The notes: generated by a model from the letters alone, not told the origin. A stretch of DNA of 64,000 bases from Minisyncoccota bacterium (GCA_041389065.1 JAWKSM010000003.1:17595-81594), one strand, 5' to 3'. Shown: positions 18,681-64,000, counted from the first letter of the stretch. Made by a program: numbers and translations.

Positions 18681-18749
18681 AGCAGCTTTTAGCCTTTAGA
18701 AGTTAGCTTTTTAGTAAAAGAGCGCGGGCCTGACCGCGCTCTATATTTA

Positions 18750-18789
18750 ATATCTAAATTCTATCGATATATCGACAGAATTTAGATAT
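18750..18789. repeat. 40-nt near-perfect palindrome with a TCGATATATCGA apex (family member)
   Basis: ATATCTAAATTCTATCGATATATCGACAGAATTTAGATAT, with one mismatched pair. It lies in the ftsA-ftsZ spacer. Confidence 0.9.
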
Positions 18790-18924: not shown

Positions 18925-20146
18925 ATGGCAAAAATTACAACTGATGTCGAAACATTTGCGAGAATAAAGGTTGTTGGTGTTGGTGGTTCAGGATGCAACG
19001 CGGTAAATCACATGATTGCTTCTAAAGTTAAAGAAGTTGGCTTTATCGTGATGAATACTGATACCCAAGACTTACACAAATCTCTTGCAGAAAGAAAATC
19101 CACTTAGGAAAAATTTAACAAAAGGTTTGGGAGCTGGAATGAATCCAGAGATTGGAAAGAAGGCTGCTGAAGAAACAAAATCAGAAATTCAAGATATCTT
19201 GAAAGGTACTGATATGGTTTTTATCGCTTGTGGTATGGGTGGTGGAACAGGAACAGGTGCAGCGCCAATAGTTGCAAGAGCTGCAAAAGAACAAGGAATC
19301 TTAACTGTTGCCGTTGTTACAAAACCATTTTTTTTCGAAGGGCAACACAGACTTCGACTTGCAGAACAAGGAATCAAAGAACTTGAAAAAGAAGTTGATG
19401 CAATAGTTATAATTCCAAACGACAGACTTTCTGCAATCACAGAAAAAGAAACAACTCTGAAAGACGCATTTGCCATGTGCGACGACATTTTGCGACAAGC
19501 TGTTGAAGGAATTTCAGACCTCATCACAACTCCAGGTATTATCAACGTCGACTTTGCCGATATTAAAGCTATTATGTCAGACGCTGGTTCAGCTCTTATG
19601 GGAATCGGAAGAGCGGCCGGAGACAACAGAGCAGAAGAAGCTGCCCTTCGAGCAATCAACTCACCACTACTTGAAATATCTATCAACGGCGCACGAGGAG
19701 TTTTGTTCTCTGTTGCTGGTGGTGACGATCTTGGACTTCAAGAAGTTCAATCAGCCGCAAAGATTATTACAGAATCAATCGACAAAGATGCTCGTGTTAT
19801 TTTCGGAACAACTCGCGACGAAAAACTAAAGAAAGGAGAAATCCAAATTACAGTTATTGCGACTGGCTTCCCTACTGGAAGTCCTAAAAAAACAATCACT
19901 CAATCTCAAAACGAAGTTAATATCCAAAAACAACTAAGTTCACTGAAAGAAGAAACTAAAGATGAGGTTATAACAAAACCGAAAAAAGGAATTGAAGAAT
20001 TCGAACTGGACGATATAATGCCAGCAAAACATTCAAAAGATCCTATTGAAATTATCGATGGTGACGCCTTCGATGATGACGAAGATGAAGACGACGACAA
20101 AGATGACTGGAGCGCAGTCCCAGCATTCCTTAGAAGGAAGAAATAA
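18925..20146 (+). CDS. ftsZ: cell division protein FtsZ, with two 1-nt frame breaks near 19090-19110
   Basis: [12 protein letters not shown]...MNTD in ORF 18868..19107 and [11 protein letters not shown]...[12 protein letters not shown] in ORF 19085..20146. The middle frame reads KIHLGK between two A-runs. Confidence 0.95.
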
Positions 20147-57642: not shown

Positions 57643-57975
57643 ATGTCTTTTAGAAAAGAAAAAGTAAATAACGAGATAAAAGAGGTTGTGGCAAACTTTC
57701 TTGAAAAAGAAGGAAACAATCTTTCTTTAATCACGGTTACATCTGTCGACGTTTCTCCTGATTTAAAGAATGCGAAAATTTTAATTTCTGTTTTGCCTGA
57801 AAATAAAGAGAAGGCAGCTTTAGATTTTTGTAAAAGAAAAAGAAGTGAAATAAAAAATGAAATAAAGAAAAAAATGAATCTTAGAGTGATTCCTTTTGTT
57901 GATATTGAAATTGACATGGGAGAAAAAAACAGACAAAAAATTCACGACCTACTTTTAGAAGAAGGTTTAGGGTAA
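57643..57975 (+). CDS. rbfA: ribosome-binding factor A
   Basis: It lies immediately after infB, and ITVTSVDVSPDLKNAKILISV is the RbfA core. Start at the ATG at 57643. Confidence 0.85.
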   Translation: MSFRKEKVNNEIKEVVANFLEKEGNNLSLITVTSVDVSPDLKNAKILISVLPENKEKAALDFCKRKRSEIKNEIKKKMNLRVIPFVDIEIDMGEKNRQKIHDLLLEEGLG

Positions 57976-58110
57976 AATATACCCCGAGGTTTTATTTCGA
58001 CCGGCATCGAAATTTTCGCGTAGGATAAAGTTCACCTTACACAAAACCTTAGCGGATAAAAACCACGCTAGAGTAGGAAGTTTAGAAAGTTTGTGTAAAA
58101 TTAAATAATC

Positions 58111-58182
58111 GGCTGGGTGGCGAAGTGGTAACGCTGCGGTCTGCAAAACCGCCATGCACGGGTTCAATTCCCGTCCCAGCCT
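58111..58182 (+). tRNA. tRNA-Cys (GCA)
   Basis: GGCTGGGTGGCGAAGTGGTAACGC... The anticodon arm is GCGGT-CTGCAAA-ACCGC and the T-arm is ACGGGTTCAATTCCCGT. Confidence 0.9.
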
Positions 58183-58217
58183 CAAAAAGATGTCTTAAAT
58201 AGGATAATAAAAAGAGC

Positions 58218-58249
58218 GCAAATTGTGTCGATATATCGACATAATTTGC
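58218..58249. repeat. 32-nt palindrome with a TCGATATATCGA apex (family member)
   Basis: GCAAATTGTGTCGATATATCGACATAATTTGC has one mismatched pair. Weaker symmetry extends to about 58208-58259 (AAAAAGAG.../...TTCTTTTT). Confidence 0.9.
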
Positions 58250-58274
58250 ATTCTTTTTATTTAAATATTTTATG

Positions 58275-58356
58275 TGCCCAGAGTGGGGGTCGAACCCACA
58301 TCCCTTTCGAGACACGATTTTAAGTCGTGCGCGTATACCAATTCCGCCATCCGGGC
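58275..58356 (-). tRNA. tRNA-Leu (UAA)
   Basis: GCCCGGATGGCGGAATTGGTATACGCG... The anticodon arm is CACGA-CTTAAAA-TCGTG. It has a long variable arm and the T-arm TGGGTTCGACCCCCA. Confidence 0.9.
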
Positions 58357-58408
58357 ATGTAACTATTATTTATTTTTTAATCAACATTTAAATACTATCA
58401 AAAAATAT

Positions 58409-58450
58409 CCCGCCGCGTATACCTCTGTATTTAATTTGCGCCATCCGGTT
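58409..58450 (-). other. tRNA-Leu 5'-half-like remnant with a D-loop insertion
   Basis: The minus strand reads AACCGGATGGCG-CAAATTAAATACAGA-GGTATACGCGGCGGG and then ATATTTTTTG. No anticodon arm or T-arm follows. Confidence 0.6.
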
Positions 58451-58460
58451 ATTTATATTG

Positions 58461-58536
58461 TGGTCCTCTCGGTAGGGATCGAACCTACGACCGTCTCCTT
58501 AAGAGGGAGCTGCTCTACCAACTGAGCTACGAGAGG
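58461..58536 (-). tRNA. tRNA-Lys (CUU), CCA encoded
   Basis: CCTCTCGTAGCTCAGTTGGTAGAGCA... The anticodon loop is CTCTTAA, the T-arm is GTAGGTTCGATCCCTAC, and the 3' end is CGAGAGGACCA. Confidence 0.85.
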
Positions 58537-58566
58537 TAGCTAAAATTACAAAACAAAGTTCTGTTG

Positions 58567-58648
58567 TGCCCAGGAGAGGACTCGAACCTCCACGGATTGC
58601 TCCATTGGTTCCTAAGACCAACGCGGCTACCAATTACGCCACCTGGGC
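58567..58648 (-). tRNA. tRNA-Leu (UAG)
   Basis: GCCCAGGTGGCGTAATTGGTAGCCGCG... The anticodon arm is TTGGT-CTTAGGA-ACCAA. It has a long variable arm and the T-arm GGAGGTTCGAGTCCTCT. Confidence 0.9.
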
Positions 58649-58724
58649 ATTGTCGGGTGACAAAAGGATATTAACATATCTTTTTAATTTTGTCTTGTCT
58701 TTTTCCCAAAATTTAATCTTTCCC

Positions 58725-58750
58725 AATTCTATCGATATATCGATAGAATT
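58725..58750. repeat. 26-nt perfect palindrome with a TCGATATATCGA apex (family member)
   Basis: AATTCTATCGATATATCGATAGAATT ends 1 nt before the stop codon of the 58752..59165 gene. Confidence 0.95.
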
Positions 58751-58751
58751 T

Positions 58752-59165
58752 TTATCTTTTTTTATCCATATCGTTCAACCAAGCCCACCTCCCTTTTCCA
58801 GCATATGCTGGCATACCTGCAAGCAAAATCTTTTCTAATATTTTAATAACTTTAACATCTTCTTTTTTCTTAGATAAGGCTAAATTTTTAATCATATTAT
58901 ACTTACCCAATGCAATATCTTCTTGAAACCTCAGAACCGTAGATGTGCTAACTTTTAAATTTTTAGAGATACGATATCTTGAAAAACCTTTTGTTATCAA
59001 AATAATAATCGCGAGCCTTTTCGCAAGCATAACAAACTCCGTCTCTGTAAAAAGTTCTTGTATTAAAAAATTCTTGTTATCGGATCTAGTCAAAGCAAAA
59101 AGTAAATCCTTCTTCATCTTTTTCATCAATTTTTCATTTATTTTATTTTTCGAGACATGGGGCAT
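58752..59165 (-). CDS. TrpR/YerC-YecD-like helix-turn-helix regulator
   Basis: ELFTETEFVMLAKRLAIIILITKGFSRYRISKNLKVSTSTVLRF matches the Trp-repressor-like pattern LT..E...la.R..i...L..G.s...I...l.vs..TI.R. Confidence 0.7.
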   Translation of the reverse strand: MPHVSKNKINEKLMKKMKKDLLFALTRSDNKNFLIQELFTETEFVMLAKRLAIIILITKGFSRYRISKNLKVSTSTVLRFQEDIALGKYNMIKNLALSKKKEDVKVIKILEKILLAGMPAYAGKGRWAWLNDMDKKR

Positions 59166-59178
59166 ATTTTTATTATAA

Positions 59179-59210
59179 CCTAATTATGTCGATATATCGA
59201 CATAATTAGG
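59179..59210. repeat. 32-nt perfect palindrome with a TCGATATATCGA apex (family member)
   Basis: CCTAATTATGTCGATATATCGACATAATTAGG begins 14 nt upstream of the regulator's start codon. Confidence 0.95.
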
Positions 59211-59240
59211 ATATTACTTAATACTAAAATTTATTATCTT

Positions 59241-59300
59241 GTCAAAAAAATATATGAAATTGTATCGATATATCGATACAATTTCATATATTTTTTTGAC
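59241..59300. promoter_or_regulatory. 60-nt perfect palindrome with a TCGATATATCGA apex and TTGAC(A) at both ends
   Basis: GTCAAAAAAATATATGAAATTGTATCGATA|TATCGATACAATTTCATATATTTTTTTGAC. With flanking bases, each outer end reads TTGACA facing outward, followed 16-17 nt later by TATAAG (right) or TATTAA (left). Confidence 0.85.
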
Positions 59301-59362
59301 AGTTAACGTATTTATTTTATAAGAAATTTTAATTTAACCCTTTATTTTCAACGTATTTTAAC

Positions 59363-59392
59363 TTGACAAATACGTATATTTTGTGATATAAT
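59363..59392 (+). promoter_or_regulatory. near-consensus sigma-70-type promoter for the SPFH-like operon
   Basis: TTGACA (59363-59368), an 18-nt spacer, then TG-A-TATAAT (59384-59392). Confidence 0.65.
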
Positions 59393-59471
59393 ATAATAGA
59401 AGACTAGGAGTACTCGCCCACGGCGACGAAAGAAGTCTGTTCATTCACAAAACAACCAAACTACATAGACC

Positions 59472-60650
59472 ATGGAAGCCCTGCTAACATTAGTTTTTTT
59501 AATACTGCTAGTAGTGGCAGTATTTCTTGCACCTGTAGCCCTTTCAAGGGGTTACATTTTCAGAGGATGGCTTCTAAATGACCATTTTCTGATACAGGAG
59601 AACAACGGAAGCTTCGCCGGAATGAAGTTACGTTCTGATACTCACAGCTTTCGAGGTGGACGTGATCCTGTAAATAAATGGGAAATCGTCGAAAGACCGA
59701 CCAAGATGACATGGTGGGAAAAAACCACTGGAACATTCGAGGTCGGTGTGTGGCCAATAGCGCAAGCAAAGAAGGTCTACGTACCCTTGAACAGGCTTGA
59801 TGTTATTAGACCCACCAACCCGAAAGATGCAATTCAGTACTTCATTGACACGGTCACGGTTGAATACCGAGGTGTGCCCAGATCTCTAAAGCATGCATTC
59901 CAAACCAGGCCTGTTGAAACTATGGGAGACCGAAACGGTCAATGCAAGATAGGAGAAACGACCAACCTTGTTGCCCTGGTTACTGAAATACTGTCAGTAG
60001 ACTTTGAGATCTATAACCCGTATCTCGCAATAATGCGAATACAAGAAGCTGCAGGTGTTGTGAATTTTATGCAACACCTCAATGAAACGCTTCAAAGTGT
60101 TGCTCGGGAGATAACTGCAAAGTTCACTTACGAGCAGATCATTAAGGCTACTGTTGAAGGAAACGATGGCAACGCGGATACGAAGTTTGGCGATAAGTTC
60201 AAGGAAATGGCAAACGGAGCTCTAGCCAAGTACGGTATCAGGATCACAAACGTCGATCTGGTGGACCATTTCCTGGATCCGGAATCTGAACAAGACCTAC
60301 TTGCATCCCAAAGAGAAAAGATGAAGGCGGAAGCTAACATCATTAATGCTGAAGGAAGCAAGAGGGTTAAGGAGCTGAATGCTCATGGAGATGCCGCGGT
60401 GCTACGCACTATCATGAAAGAAGCAAAAGGAGACCCGAATATAGTTCTTGCAGAACTTGAAAGGCGTGGTAGAACCGACGCTGCAAGATTTGCAGGAGAG
60501 AAGTTTCAAGGTGAATTCCTAACGCTGAGCTTTGGCGGACCAAACTCTGGGCAACCAGGTCCAACGCCAGCAGTAACGGTCGGCGCTGTTAGCCCAAAAG
60601 AAAAAAAGGGTGATCAAAACAAGCAACAAGAAAAGAAAAAGAGATCATGA
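59472..60650 (+). CDS. SPFH/band-7-like membrane protein (GC-rich)
   Basis: N-terminal TM. The middle LVALVTEILSVDFEIYNPY...ITAKFTYEQIIK...AKYGIRITNVDLVD...ASQREKMKAEANIINAEG resembles an SPFH core plus a coiled coil. The tail is rich in Gly, Pro and Lys. Confidence 0.55.
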   Translation: MEALLTLVFLILLVVAVFLAPVALSRGYIFRGWLLNDHFLIQENNGSFAGMKLRSDTHSFRGGRDPVNKWEIVERPTKMTWWEKTTGTFEVGVWPIAQAKKVYVPLNRLDVIRPTNPKDAIQYFIDTVTVEYRGVPRSLKHAFQTRPVETMGDRNGQCKIGETTNLVALVTEILSVDFEIYNPYLAIMRIQEAAGVVNFMQHLNETLQSVAREITAKFTYEQIIKATVEGNDGNADTKFGDKFKEMANGALAKYGIRITNVDLVDHFLDPESEQDLLASQREKMKAEANIINAEGSKRVKELNAHGDAAVLRTIMKEAKGDPNIVLAELERRGRTDAARFAGEKFQGEFLTLSFGGPNSGQPGPTPAVTVGAVSPKEKKGDQNKQQEKKKRS

Positions 60651-61207
60651 TTACCTTCTTCATCATCGGCATAGCGGTATTAACGCTTGTCGTGGTAGCC
60701 TCTGTATTCACAATTGTGAAAAATAGAGGGGTAAAGAGCAGCGATGTGGCGCCATCAAAGAAAGCTTCGGGCGGAGGGTCCATGATCTTCTGGCCGTTGT
60801 CACGTCTTGGTGTCGCGTGCTTAACAGCAGGATTAGCAATCTTCTGCTGGTGGGCCTGGTATGAGATGAAGGACAGTGGTCACATGCACAAAGGAATGAT
60901 GATAGCCGACGGCACAGGGCTGAAGGTATCGAAACTCCCGAAAGGCGGTGACAAGTCTAAACTCGACCGGTATCAATACCCTCAGAAAGCAGACATGGGT
61001 AGGCTCGAGGGCTTCCTGGTTCCACCAGGAGTTGAGCTCGTCGTGGTACCTCTTAAGATGACACCCGACGGTTCATATCAGCCCAGCGATTTCACTCCAT
61101 CGTTTACCTACACCAACCAGAAGCTCAGTTCTGACTACTGGAAGACTGTACTGGAGGTATACACTTTATATCTGGAAGCAATTCCAAAGATAAAGAAGCG
61201 ACCGTAG
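60647..61207 (+). CDS. hypothetical membrane protein, translationally coupled to the SPFH-like gene
   Basis: ATGA start/stop overlap. Two TM segments are followed by a ~100-aa soluble domain, which could be an NfeD-type partner. This is unproven. Confidence 0.5.
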   Translation: MITFFIIGIAVLTLVVVASVFTIVKNRGVKSSDVAPSKKASGGGSMIFWPLSRLGVACLTAGLAIFCWWAWYEMKDSGHMHKGMMIADGTGLKVSKLPKGGDKSKLDRYQYPQKADMGRLEGFLVPPGVELVVVPLKMTPDGSYQPSDFTPSFTYTNQKLSSDYWKTVLEVYTLYLEAIPKIKKRP

Positions 61208-61370: not shown

Positions 61371-61694
61371 TTACTCTCCTAGTGACGGAAGATTTACTTC
61401 TCCGGTCTGTGGATTGATTTGATTTTCTATACCCAAGGTTCCTAATATGAGTTGCATTATGAAAAATACAGATCCCATAATAGCCATACCTATTAATCCC
61501 CAAATTATATGCTGTTTACCTTTCTCCCTGCCATCAGCACTACTTGAATCTCGAATGAATTCAAATACACCGTAGACAAAGTAGATGGCCGCAATGGCAA
61601 ACATGAGGGTGATAAGAGGGTTAATAAGTACTTTATTAACCTTTCGTATCGTATCATCAACAGATGCGTAAGCAGTAAAAATGAATGGCCACAT
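61371..61694 (-). CDS. TrbC/VirB2-like (type IV secretion pilin-like) small membrane protein, paralog 1
   Basis: NPLITLMFAIAAIYFVYGVFEFIRDSSSADGREKGKQHIIWGLIGMAIMGSVFFI has a TM, a short charged loop, then a second TM. Confidence 0.65.
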   Translation of the reverse strand: MWPFIFTAYASVDDTIRKVNKVLINPLITLMFAIAAIYFVYGVFEFIRDSSSADGREKGKQHIIWGLIGMAIMGSVFFIMQLILGTLGIENQINPQTGEVNLPSLGE

Positions 61695-61702
61695 ATTACG
61701 TA

Positions 61703-62146
61703 TTAAGGACAGTTAGGTTCATTCCATTGGGTTGCTCCGGTAAGAGGATCGACCCCAACAATAATACAAGAACTTGAGTTTTGAACACTGGTTCCCCCTT
61801 GGTTAACACCGAATGTAGAGTTAAGTATTGCAACAAGCCCCCAGATAGAAACGATTACGAAAAGACCTACAATACCTGAGATAATCATTGTTCTACCCTC
61901 TGCTTGTTTTTCATTATCACTTGCTGTTACATATTTAATAACACCAGCAATAACATATATAACTGCAAGAGTAATCAAAATTGGAATAACAATATTTAAG
62001 ATTCCACCCACCACCGCTAATATATTAAACACTGTAGGACCTCCAATATTTGTACCACCTGGAACAACGGGTTCATTTTGAGCAAGCGTCATCAACGGAG
62101 AAGCTAATAAGCCAACTACTCCAAAAGTTTTTATTAATCTATTCAT
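61703..62146 (-). CDS. TrbC/VirB2-like pilin-like protein, paralog 2
   Basis: A signal peptide is followed by ILITLAVIYVIAGVIKYVTASDNEKQAEGRTMIISGIVGLFVIVSIWGL. A Cys-containing C-terminal tail follows. Confidence 0.65.
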   Translation of the reverse strand: MNRLIKTFGVVGLLASPLMTLAQNEPVVPGGTNIGGPTVFNILAVVGGILNIVIPILITLAVIYVIAGVIKYVTASDNEKQAEGRTMIISGIVGLFVIVSIWGLVAILNSTFGVNQGGTSVQNSSSCIIVGVDPLTGATQWNEPNCP

Positions 62147-62230
62147 AGATATAAAAATTTATAAAAAATAATCTAATAATATGCGACCTAAATAAGCTTT
62201 AGGGCTGAATATATTATACCACCTAGTCAA

Positions 62231-62653
62231 CTATTGCGACTCTTGAAGCTGTGGAATAAAGGTAGTGTTGCCTATTCCAAAAGTTCCCTGTAAAACCCCC
62301 ACAAGACCCCAAACAGAAACAATCACAAAAAGACCTACTAATCCATATATTATCAGATTGGTTCCCTCTTCTCTGGCCGAACTGTCATCTCCTTTACTAA
62401 TATATTTTATAACACCGACAATAAACACGATCACGGATATAGATATTAGAAGTGGCCAAACAGATTTTTTTAAAATACAAACAGCTAGATCAAAAATATC
62501 TGCAACACTTCCAATATCAGCAGGGCAACCATTTGTGTTATTACTTGTATTGTAATTAACATTAACAACTGGCTGCGCCAAAGCAAAATTTGCAAAAGGC
62601 ATACTCACCGCAACCACCATAATAATTTGTAATAAAAAATTTTTTATCTTCAT
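62231..62653 (-). CDS. TrbC/VirB2-like pilin-like protein, paralog 3
   Basis: A signal peptide is followed by LLISISVIVFIVGVIKYISKGDDSSAREEGTNLIIYGLVGLFVIVSVWGL. Confidence 0.65.
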   Translation of the reverse strand: MKIKNFLLQIIMVVAVSMPFANFALAQPVVNVNYNTSNNTNGCPADIGSVADIFDLAVCILKKSVWPLLISISVIVFIVGVIKYISKGDDSSAREEGTNLIIYGLVGLFVIVSVWGLVGVLQGTFGIGNTTFIPQLQESQ

Positions 62654-62660
62654 ATTTTAA

Positions 62661-63533
62661 CTAACTAATAAAATTAATAATTGTTTGTACGTAAACCAAA
62701 TTCAACTCGTCAAATGTTCCCTTTAAAACTTTTACTATCGTCCAAGCGCTGAGCAGTATCAAAACTCCGACCACAACCCAGAGCAAGTTTGTTTTTGCGG
62801 ACTCTAGCTCTTTTTCATTTCCTCGAGCCATAACAAGTCTAAGCCCAGAATAAACCAAGAATATTACCATCACCGGAATTCCTATCTTAAGTAAAGCATT
62901 TAAAAGTCCAATTACAAAACCGTTTAAATCAGTAACATTGAGCGGGTTTTGAAAAACAGCCTGTGGCCAGCCAGCAGTTGTTGCGGTGCCGTTTGGATCT
63001 GTTGCATTACCCCCTCCTGGGTTATTATTTCCATCTGTTGGTGGATTGTTGTTTCCACCATCAGACGGAGGGTTGTTGTTGCCTCCTGGCTGCCCTGGAG
63101 AGACTGAAGTTACAAGAACTGAAGTTGTAGGAAATAAGTTTACAGTTTGTGGCGCAAGTCTGAAAAGGAAATAATAATTTGTGCCTGGCAAAAATTGCTG
63201 AGATGAACCAGAAATAGTACCAAAAAAACTATTAGAAGATGAGAAGTTGTTTAAAGTTGGATCTTGGTGGCCCAGAAACCAGTTATTAAATGAAATATTT
63301 GGATCATTTATATCTGGCGGCGGAGTGTCGTAAACATTAAAGAAAACGCCTACGTCTTGAATATTTACACTCTCTAAAGAAAGATTGCCTGAAACATCGG
63401 CGGTTATTTGACCACTATCCTCTTCAAAAACAGCATTTGGTCCTACAGAAAAAGATGCTGATTGAGCATATGAAAAAGATGGAAATAGAAGAACGAAGAT
63501 TGGTATTATTAAAATTTTATAAAAAAACTTCAT
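62661..63533 (-). CDS. TrbC/VirB2-like pilin-like protein with a ~190-aa N-terminal ectodomain, paralog 4
   Basis: A signal peptide and a variable domain are followed by a GGNNNPPSDGGNNNPPTDGNNNPGGG linker. The C-terminus is NPLNVTDLNGFVIGLLNALLKIGIPVMVIFLVYSGLRLVMARGNEKELESAKTNLLWVVVG. Confidence 0.65.
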   Translation of the reverse strand: MKFFYKILIIPIFVLLFPSFSYAQSASFSVGPNAVFEEDSGQITADVSGNLSLESVNIQDVGVFFNVYDTPPPDINDPNISFNNWFLGHQDPTLNNFSSSNSFFGTISGSSQQFLPGTNYYFLFRLAPQTVNLFPTTSVLVTSVSPGQPGGNNNPPSDGGNNNPPTDGNNNPGGGNATDPNGTATTAGWPQAVFQNPLNVTDLNGFVIGLLNALLKIGIPVMVIFLVYSGLRLVMARGNEKELESAKTNLLWVVVGVLILLSAWTIVKVLKGTFDELNLVYVQTIINFIS

Positions 63534-63535
63534 AT

Positions 63536-64000
63536 TTAAACAAGATAATGACTAATCATAGCAATACTTTCTATTGTTTCTTTTATAAGTTTTGCAAAAA
63601 TCCAAGCGCCAAGAAGTATCGCACCACCGATAACAGCATAGGTGAAAGCATTTCGCGCAGTTTCAAGTTGGGCTGTATCCCCTCTTGCGGTCACAAATAA
63701 AAGACCAGAATAAATAATTGCAATTGCAATAATTGGAATACCAATTTTAATTGCGAAAGTGATCACCTTTTCAATAAAACTAACCAAAGTCATATTGCTA
63801 TCCCCTATTGGATTTTGAATATTTATGTCGATTTCTTCACCGGATATTCCTATAGGATTGGTGTTGGCGCCACTATTATTTGTTGTAGAATTTTGCTGAG
63901 TTAAATCTGCTGGCCAGGTTGATTGATATGTAATTTGAGTTACATATTGCCAATTTCTATCATCACACTCATTTACAGAACAATTATATTTTAGATTTGA
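63536..64000 (-). CDS. TrbC/VirB2-like pilin-like protein with an N-terminal ectodomain, paralog 5 (5' end beyond the window)
   Basis: The frame stays open to the window edge. The C-terminus is NPIGDSNMTLVSFIEKVITFAIKIGIPIIAIAIIYSGLLFVTARGDTAQLETARNAFTYAVIGG. Confidence 0.65.
   Translation of the reverse strand, partial: SNLKYNCSVNECDDRNWQYVTQITYQSTWPADLTQQNSTTNNSGANTNPIGISGEEIDINIQNPIGDSNMTLVSFIEKVITFAIKIGIPIIAIAIIYSGLLFVTARGDTAQLETARNAFTYAVIGGAILLGAWIFAKLIKETIESIAMISHYLV

Follow-up and report, generated by a model that had tools for sequence, protein, structure and literature searches.

The 62-nt perfect palindrome TGTCAAAAAAATATATGAAATTGTATCGATATATCGATACAATTTCATATATTTTTTTGACA at positions 59240–59301 of a 64-kb stretch of DNA from a Minisyncoccota bacterium (64,000 nt, hereafter the window) is probably a lineage-specific auxiliary operator whose arms have recently been lengthened, with its 26-bp core probably serving as the operator of a TrpR-like autorepressor encoded next to it. 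The regulator gene lies 76–105 bp from the palindrome, and the core is predicted to be its operator. Comparison of homologous loci provides strong evidence for the core as the regulator's own putative operator and for autorepression of the gene. The preliminary description of this DNA had proposed one bound factor at the core, acting within a divergent promoter; the bound factor stands, being very probably the neighbouring regulator in view of the covariation between site and protein across 74 homologues, whereas the palindrome as a divergent promoter does not.

The palindrome equals its own reverse complement and thus reads alike on both strands. The two exact reverse-complement halves described earlier are confirmed, yet the element is 2 nt longer than the 60 nt claimed. 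Each outer end carries TTGACA pointing outward, as had been reported (59296–59301 on the plus strand and 59245–59240 on the minus strand), and TATAAG (59318–59323, plus) and TATTAA (59223–59218, minus) follow with a spacing of exactly 16 nt each. No other palindrome in the 64-kb window is as long, and the top five there are the five copies of one core. The fold z-score is −12.4 for RNA and −11.2 for DNA, the latter calculated for the extended segment 59205–59340, with 0 of 200 shuffles folding as well; the corresponding hairpin energies are −36.3 and −31.6 kcal/mol (the DNA value again for 59205–59340). The palindrome is non-random and far beyond chance. An imperfect outer extension with an asymmetric bulge, TAAAATTTATTAT / ATAAGAAATTTTA, is added by fold prediction and takes the structure to 59225–59331.

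The notion of a conserved core in the preliminary description holds, since TCGATATATCGA occurs five times in the window against 0.12 expected. Inside the palindrome, the 26-nt conserved core AATTGTATCGATATATCGATACAATT occupies 59258–59283, and the same core is found at 11 loci of five related metagenome-assembled genomes (MAGs). The 26-nt pattern AATTnTrTCGATATATCGAyAnAATT has five copies in the 64-kb window, each with 0 mismatches and with approximately none expected, centred at 18769, 58233, 58737, 59194, and 59270. Four of them fall inside 1.1 kb around the TrpR-like gene, and the fifth lies between ftsA and ftsZ. The predicted primary operator (site 4, O1) is a 32-nt perfect palindrome at 59179–59210, with its core at 59182–59207 and its centre 29 nt before the regulator ATG; the predicted downstream operator (site 3, O3; 58725–58750) begins 2 nt past the regulator stop codon; and the 62-nt palindrome (site 5, O2) has its centre 76 bp upstream of O1. 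Site 2 (58221–58246, within an imperfect palindrome at 58197–58270) is located approximately 500 bp downstream of the regulator gene, between convergent tRNA-Cys and tRNA-Leu genes, and is kept in four relatives (L012, L016, L017, and L025). Site 1 (18757–18782) comes directly after a GC-rich terminator hairpin between ftsA and ftsZ, and an orthologous site adjoins ftsA in L009. Weaker core sites with 1–3 mismatches were searched for within the 64-kb window and none was found; such a set of all-perfect sites without graded weaker ones is unusual for a regulon and counts against the operator reading.

The regulator gene (58752–59165, minus strand) encodes 137 amino acids and belongs to the MPHVSK... 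family. The protein matches the Pfam Trp_repressor model (PF01371) at 30.6 bits, with a cut-off of 27, and the family profile finds the PDB entries 3KOR, 3FRW, and 3G1C at E-values of 3e-7 to 1e-5 and TrpR at about 0.01–0.03. The AlphaFold (AF2) model has a pLDDT of 78, and its top Foldseek matches are all TrpR. Membership of the YerC/YecD (HisR) group is not indicated, TIGR02531 giving 17.2 bits against a cut-off of 42.2. Domain, profile, and structure searches returned TrpR and helix-turn-helix (HTH) matches only, with no nuclease or transposase domain. Matches to Cbp1 and to the transposase-type HTH_23 were rejected as far under their cut-offs. Family members are nearly invariant, at 31–66% identity to the window protein, in the MPHVS[KR] N-terminus (window residues 1–5) and in the C-terminal GMP...G-x-GRW (residues 118–127); the model has low confidence around the C-terminal motif, which may serve in ligand binding or oligomerisation. 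A search at E ≤ 1e-10 puts the family at no fewer than 1,587 clusters of 50% identity; its named members come from MAGs of Patescibacteria (CPR).

The evidence that ties the core to this protein comes from the recognition helix. Among the homologues, 43 of the 47 with Ser in the recognition helix have NCGATA sites and nine of the 11 with Gln have ATGATA sites; Thr is paired with ACAATA. At loci with the rare cores ACAGCGCT, ACAGTATACTGT, ACGATTAATCGT, and GTCAGTTAACTGAC, the upstream copy is the same as the downstream copy inside each locus. Factors of the TrpR family, including HisR/YerC, bind palindromes of approximately 20 bp with a lineage-specific consensus (PMC9413887).

When metagenomes were scanned with the family alignment, 340 relatives were found; 80 loci, with 74 distinct proteins, were retained. 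Nearly all of the 74 distinct homologues have a palindrome with the same core over the −35/spacer region and again just after the stop codon, and the loci that fail a strict bracket test contain imperfect versions of the palindrome. Homologues at 35–45% identity are set among unrelated genes, and each is flanked on both sides by its own sites; for four distant ones (38–44% identity), whose surroundings are SMC/RNase R, recA/efp, an acyl-CoA ligase region, and topA/dprA, the core sequence differs from locus to locus. The enrichment around the gene exceeds 100-fold, with two to four sites within ±250 nt of it against nine in 207 kb of flanks from 62 loci (4.3 per 100 kb). Family-wide, most upstream sites are centred between −35 and −12 relative to the ATG, the mode being −29/−30, and a second upstream site 55–166 bp from the first is also found in seven homologous loci (L022, L042, L044, L045, L059, L078, and L082).

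The position of the upstream site relative to the transcription signals is consistent with autorepression. In the window, the inner half-site of O1, TCGATA, is at the same time a −35-like hexamer 17 nt from TATAAT, so that the operator covers the −35/spacer; the predicted regulator promoter (59172–59200, minus strand) consists of TCGATA at 59200–59195, inside O1, and TATAAT at 59177–59172, which lies 6 nt from the ATG at 59165 and would yield a leaderless transcript. Of 72 loci, 28 have a TANNNT hexamer whose end is 6 nt ahead of the ATG and 52 have one that ends 3–11 nt ahead of it (16% at random positions), and a Shine–Dalgarno-like sequence upstream of the ATG was found in none of the 72; the family mRNAs are therefore predicted to be leaderless. 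From the arrangement of sites we infer binding, repression, and looping as follows. A dimer on O1 (59182–59207) would occlude RNA polymerase, so that the regulator gene represses itself, and O2, by cooperating with O1 and O3 in binding or looping, would most likely make this autorepression stronger. An effect of O2 on the SPFH operon, if there is one, would be secondary because the centre of the palindrome is approximately 129 bp upstream of the start of the conserved promoter.

The downstream operator is present in 20 of 25 loci with a co-directional next gene and in 26 of 36 with a convergent one, and from its presence with either orientation it is concluded that it forms part of the regulator gene's own arrangement rather than of a neighbour's promoter. 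It may serve in looping, as a roadblock, or to insulate the gene from transcription nearby. The distances between upstream and downstream operators (399–537 bp) were analysed for helical phasing, and no periodicity of 10–11.5 bp was found. As an observation on orientation, where the operator centre is asymmetric the post-stop copy is the reverse complement of the upstream copy in two loci (L072 and L080) and has the same orientation in four others (L041, L065, L076, and L079).

A different role for these inverted repeats would be at the RNA level, the palindrome forming a hairpin that acts as a bidirectional intrinsic terminator or insulator (A7-stem-T7). A terminator scan does flag the palindrome on both strands, together with sites 2, 3, and 4; elsewhere, A-runs and T-runs flank several copies that are found at the 3′ ends of genes or between convergent tRNAs, and the downstream copy in L012 retains pairing on the sense strand through two G-U wobbles. 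The palindrome itself, however, has only four G-C pairs among the 20 stem pairs counted and is placed between divergent genes instead of at the 3′ end of a transcription unit, and no predicted transcript crosses it, since it is upstream of both conserved promoters. The conserved apex sequence also tracks the recognition helix, which a terminator would not require. The post-stop sites were considered as intrinsic terminators and rejected as such, because T-runs are rare there, with only 8% family-wide followed by at least five T in 8 nt, no T-run enrichment, and no strand asymmetry. A search of 57900–59600 against Rfam 15 (E-value mode) passed only tRNAs, the best matches to the palindrome being hairpin look-alikes at 31.6 bits against a threshold of 100 and 28.2 against 65.3. 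The terminator explanation is thus very unlikely for the palindrome. With regard to site 2, long A-run/T-run arms were noted around the core between the convergent tRNAs in the window (58197–58270, imperfect), L025 (5903–5958), L012 (approximately 4250), and L016 (approximately 1688); this site is a perfect palindrome of 56–58 nt in L025 and L012 and resembles a bidirectional terminator built on an operator core.

The preliminary description interpreted the palindrome as a mirror-symmetric divergent promoter, its TTGACA ends acting as −35 elements for the SPFH operon and for the regulator gene while a central factor or a cruciform controls both units. This interpretation is largely wrong, and a divergent promoter at this position is unlikely. 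The boxes with their 16-nt spacings are present, and both pairs agree with sigma-70 promoters in having TTGACA at −35 and 16–18 nt to the −10 hexamer; a factor bound at the core would be centred approximately 60 bp upstream of either hypothetical start, the classical position of an activator, and TCGATA-16-TATATT occurs inside the palindrome in both directions with nine of 12 matches each. Neither −10 hexamer, however, combines A2 with T6, as TATAAG ends in G and TATTAA in A, and both are missing from the consensus scan because they have no conserved T at position 6. Promoter-like matches are also frequent in this AT-rich stretch (16 found against 6.1 expected). Weak promoter activity of the palindrome boxes is possible.

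Comparison with relatives bears on the same question. In the sister strain L025, whose regulator is 99% identical to that of the window and whose DNA is 92–97% (about 95%) identical, the position of the palindrome is occupied only by the 30-nt palindrome AAAATTGTATCGATATATCGATACAATTTT. The sequence TTGATA is found there on the SPFH side and nothing like TTGACA on the regulator side, and approximately 30 nt (about 59302–59333), which carry TATAAG in the window, are missing. The rightward boxes TTGACA-16-TATAAG (59296–59323, plus strand) are accordingly absent from L025, and the leftward boxes TTGACA-16-TATTAA (59218–59245, minus strand) belong to a stretch that is 44% different in it. Seven further relatives (L012, L014, L016, L017, L018, L136, and L137), with regulators approximately 58–67% identical, share the gene order of pilin-like genes, a gene for 225 amino acids, and SPFH, with the regulator, tRNAs, rbfA, and infB divergently; no counterpart of the palindrome was found at its position in these seven, and their divergent intergenic regions have a single core site, adjoining the regulator ATG. 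They keep two other promoters. The first is the SPFH-operon promoter (59363–59392, plus strand), found by the consensus scan as TTGACA-18-TATAAT with a TG extension and a match of 12 of 12; it is conserved in all seven and in L025, within a conserved block that matches 59334–59471 of the window (upstream element, SPFH promoter, and 5′UTR). The second is the TATAAT (59177–59172) 6 nt ahead of the regulator ATG. The operon comprises an SPFH/Band_7 gene (59472–60650, plus strand; Pfam PF01145, 38.5 bits) and an overlapping gene for a membrane protein of 186 amino acids (60647–61207, plus strand). The mirror-promoter interpretation of both units is not supported, because L025 and the other relatives are without its elements, other promoters are conserved, and the −10 hexamers have no T6.

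The difference between the two strains is concentrated in one arm. The window and L025 have 0 mismatches in 61 positions over 59150–59210, 19 in 43 over 59211–59254, four in 45 over 59255–59301, and 10 in 146 over 59334–59480, and on the regulator side, the arm bases that are changed in the window are exactly complementary to the SPFH-side arm, which is common to both strains. This pattern suggests templated conversion, of which it has the signature, by quasipalindrome template switching. Quasipalindrome template-switch mutation, a process connected with the names of Ripley and Lovett, reportedly perfects an imperfect inverted repeat through a cluster of changes in one arm, apparently in one step. 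The present case differs from that system in being read from two natural strains without an outgroup, and the insertion of approximately 30 nt on the other side would also have to be accounted for. We infer, with regard to direction and mechanism, that template switching from one arm to the other, as quasipalindrome correction or extension, brought the arms to perfect complementarity, probably recently, and that the same event would have produced the mirror-image TTGACA boxes as a by-product and not as a designed pair. The direction of the difference between the window and L025 is not polarisable because the more distant relatives are without site 5. An outside source of the strain-specific patches was looked for with a 9-mer search, which found none; the only matches were to the arm of the palindrome itself and to a local AACGTATTT repeat at 59305/59350. 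The unusual length and perfection of the palindrome copy would not be needed for function.

Symmetry beyond the core was also analysed across lineages. In all of them, two-fold symmetry is high to approximately 13 nt from the centre and reaches background by approximately 20 nt. In the clade of the window, 28 distinct sites (some orthologous and hence not fully independent) have complementary bases at the variable positions 7, 9, and 14–21 in 60–85% of cases, with three to four pair types, and column-preserving shuffles give 30–40% at the same arm positions, none of 500 reaching the observed value at positions 7, 9, 14–17, and 19. This covariation is not accounted for by protein contacts to a 26-bp site and must reflect a hairpin-related process or selection that pairs both arms. 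It could be taken as favouring a DNA cruciform or hairpin switch, in which extrusion driven by supercoiling would alter promoter geometry or factor binding, maybe together with the regulator; the ATATAT centre and the strongly favourable predicted DNA hairpin (−31.6 kcal/mol, z = −11) point in the same direction. Against such a switch, the decay of symmetry to background past approximately 13–20 nt in all lineages and the arms of just 15 nt in the sister strain have to be set, and template switching accounts for the symmetry without any function; the cruciform explanation is considered quite improbable.

Core sites also exist away from the regulator gene. In the five related MAGs, the 26-nt pattern was found at 11 further loci, all but one intergenic. 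The sites at ftsA|ftsZ and RNase HII|truB are kept at orthologous positions in two genomes, and other non-cassette neighbours include the gyrA 3′ end, the convergent ends of dnaJ and an ion-channel gene, a pseudouridine synthase gene, an IMPDH gene, and a DD-carboxypeptidase gene. The sole intragenic copy seen is in L001 (7923–7948), where it is read in frame as part of a GT4 glycosyltransferase gene (coding ...NCIDISIQFVGKK...). A functional theme was looked for among the genes at the non-cassette sites and none was found. Such sites often adjoin the 3′ end of a gene or separate two convergent genes, as at gyrA, dnaJ/ion channel, and tRNA-Cys/tRNA-Leu, positions at which a promoter would not be expected; this is the chief difficulty for the picture of a simple regulon. 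At ftsA|ftsZ, the GC-rich terminator hairpin AGAGCGCGGGCCTGACCGCGCTCT (18717–18745 in the window) comes directly before the core, and L009 has the same hairpin and core side by side. In the same region of the window, ftsZ starts at 18925 (MAKITT...) and meets a stop after 60 codons (18925–19110), the conserved protein resuming in another frame; the apparent frameshift, in an A-run near 19095–19110, may be an assembly error, a pseudogene, or slippage.

The distribution of solo sites raises the question of a selfish repeat of the REP/RAYT or MITE type, in which the gene and its two palindromes would be, or would once have been, mobile and the solo copies would be non-autonomous derivatives. The gene is bracketed by its own palindromes across lineages, as RAYT genes are by REPs, the cassette is found in different neighbourhoods in distant lineages, and the solo copies lie between genes, frequently at a 3′ end, and are of all-or-none quality. 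Several observations argue against this, making it highly improbable. The protein is an HTH protein of 130–145 amino acids without a nuclease or transposase domain, and the copy number is low, with one site in the approximately 62 kb of the window outside the regulator neighbourhood and 4.3 sites per 100 kb in the homologue flanks. The gene position is syntenic across regulators that are 58–99% identical, solo sites occupy orthologous positions (ftsA|ftsZ and RNase HII|truB), and a viral collection of 2.9 million contigs contained zero relatives of the regulator family. When the same collection was searched with the DNA motif, 30 single matches were obtained, estimated to be about what chance gives for a 16-mer at that size.

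A broader role was also hypothesized, in which MPHVS-type TrpR-like proteins would form a CPR-wide class of DNA-binding proteins acting beyond autoregulation, each gene being a self-insulated module within its own sites. Palindromes at gene ends elsewhere (convergent tRNAs, the gyrA 3′ end, and ftsA|ftsZ), whether protein-bound or hairpin-forming, would serve in these very small genomes as transcriptional roadblocks or boundary elements, and an extruded hairpin that is recognised or used would account for the arm covariation; this is regarded as rather doubtful. The autorepressor with its own operators remains the preferred interpretation, and several known systems resemble it in part. With E. 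coli TrpR/trpR it shares the small intertwined-dimer HTH protein of TrpR fold and a palindromic operator over its own promoter, with autorepression predicted here. The window protein is only marginally similar to E. coli TrpR and has, unlike it, an extra C-terminal part of approximately 40 amino acids with G-x-GRW and the invariant MPHVS N-terminus; the operator is approximately 26 bp long with a GATATATC centre, the mRNA is predicted to be leaderless, and a second operator follows the stop codon. HisR (YerC/YecD) of Firmicutes, represented by 3KOR, 3FRW, and 3G1C, is the closest relative of solved structure and has lineage-specific palindromic motifs of approximately 20 bp (PMC9413887). The sites of HisR are upstream of his genes, whereas the main predicted target here is the regulator's own gene, on both flanks, with no metabolic theme elsewhere.

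The resemblance to REP/RAYT elements consists in a single-copy gene flanked by palindromes that its product is thought to recognise, with more copies in intergenic regions. The present family differs in having no HUH/Y1 transposase domain, in probably tens of copies per genome and not hundreds, and in a repeat whose centre is conserved while the arms vary and whose positions are conserved between species. The auxiliary operators of lac, gal, and deo offer a further parallel, with a primary operator at the promoter and auxiliaries tens to hundreds of base pairs away, upstream and inside or after the gene; here, by comparison, tetramer formation is without support and the O1–O3 distances (399–537 bp) are without helical phasing. 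Full-text literature searches on the motif, the cassette architecture, and a CPR TrpR-like regulator found nothing relevant besides HisR.

The regulator family is large, is found in ultra-small CPR bacteria, and is apparently undescribed. Almost nothing is known of transcriptional control in CPR/Patescibacteria, for which this locus offers a concrete, predicted pairing of a regulator with its operator and a specificity code (Ser, Gln, or Thr with CG, TG, or CA) that can be read straight from genomes. The combination of an operator doubling as a −35 element, a leaderless mRNA, and a post-stop operator, as predicted here, is unusual for a bacterial repressor. The strain pair presents a natural case of the lengthening of a functional palindrome, apparently by templated mutation, and the promoter-like boxes that mirror copying can make advise caution in inferring function from symmetric hexamers.

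On the far side of the palindrome from the regulator, the SPFH regulatory block (59334–59471) consists of an upstream element (AACGTATTTTAAC...), the promoter TTGACA-18-TG-n-TATAAT, and a 5′UTR that has AGGAG and a small GC hairpin; eight relatives keep this block but not the rest of the intergenic region. Between the SPFH −35 and −10, an imperfect palindrome (59354–59393) is centred on ATACGTAT; it is identical in L025 and not kept in L012, and it could be a site for another factor. Adjoining the SPFH operon, 61371–63793 (minus strand) encodes five small membrane proteins with T4SS-pilin (PF18895) matches or a similar architecture, an arrangement that is syntenic in the relatives.
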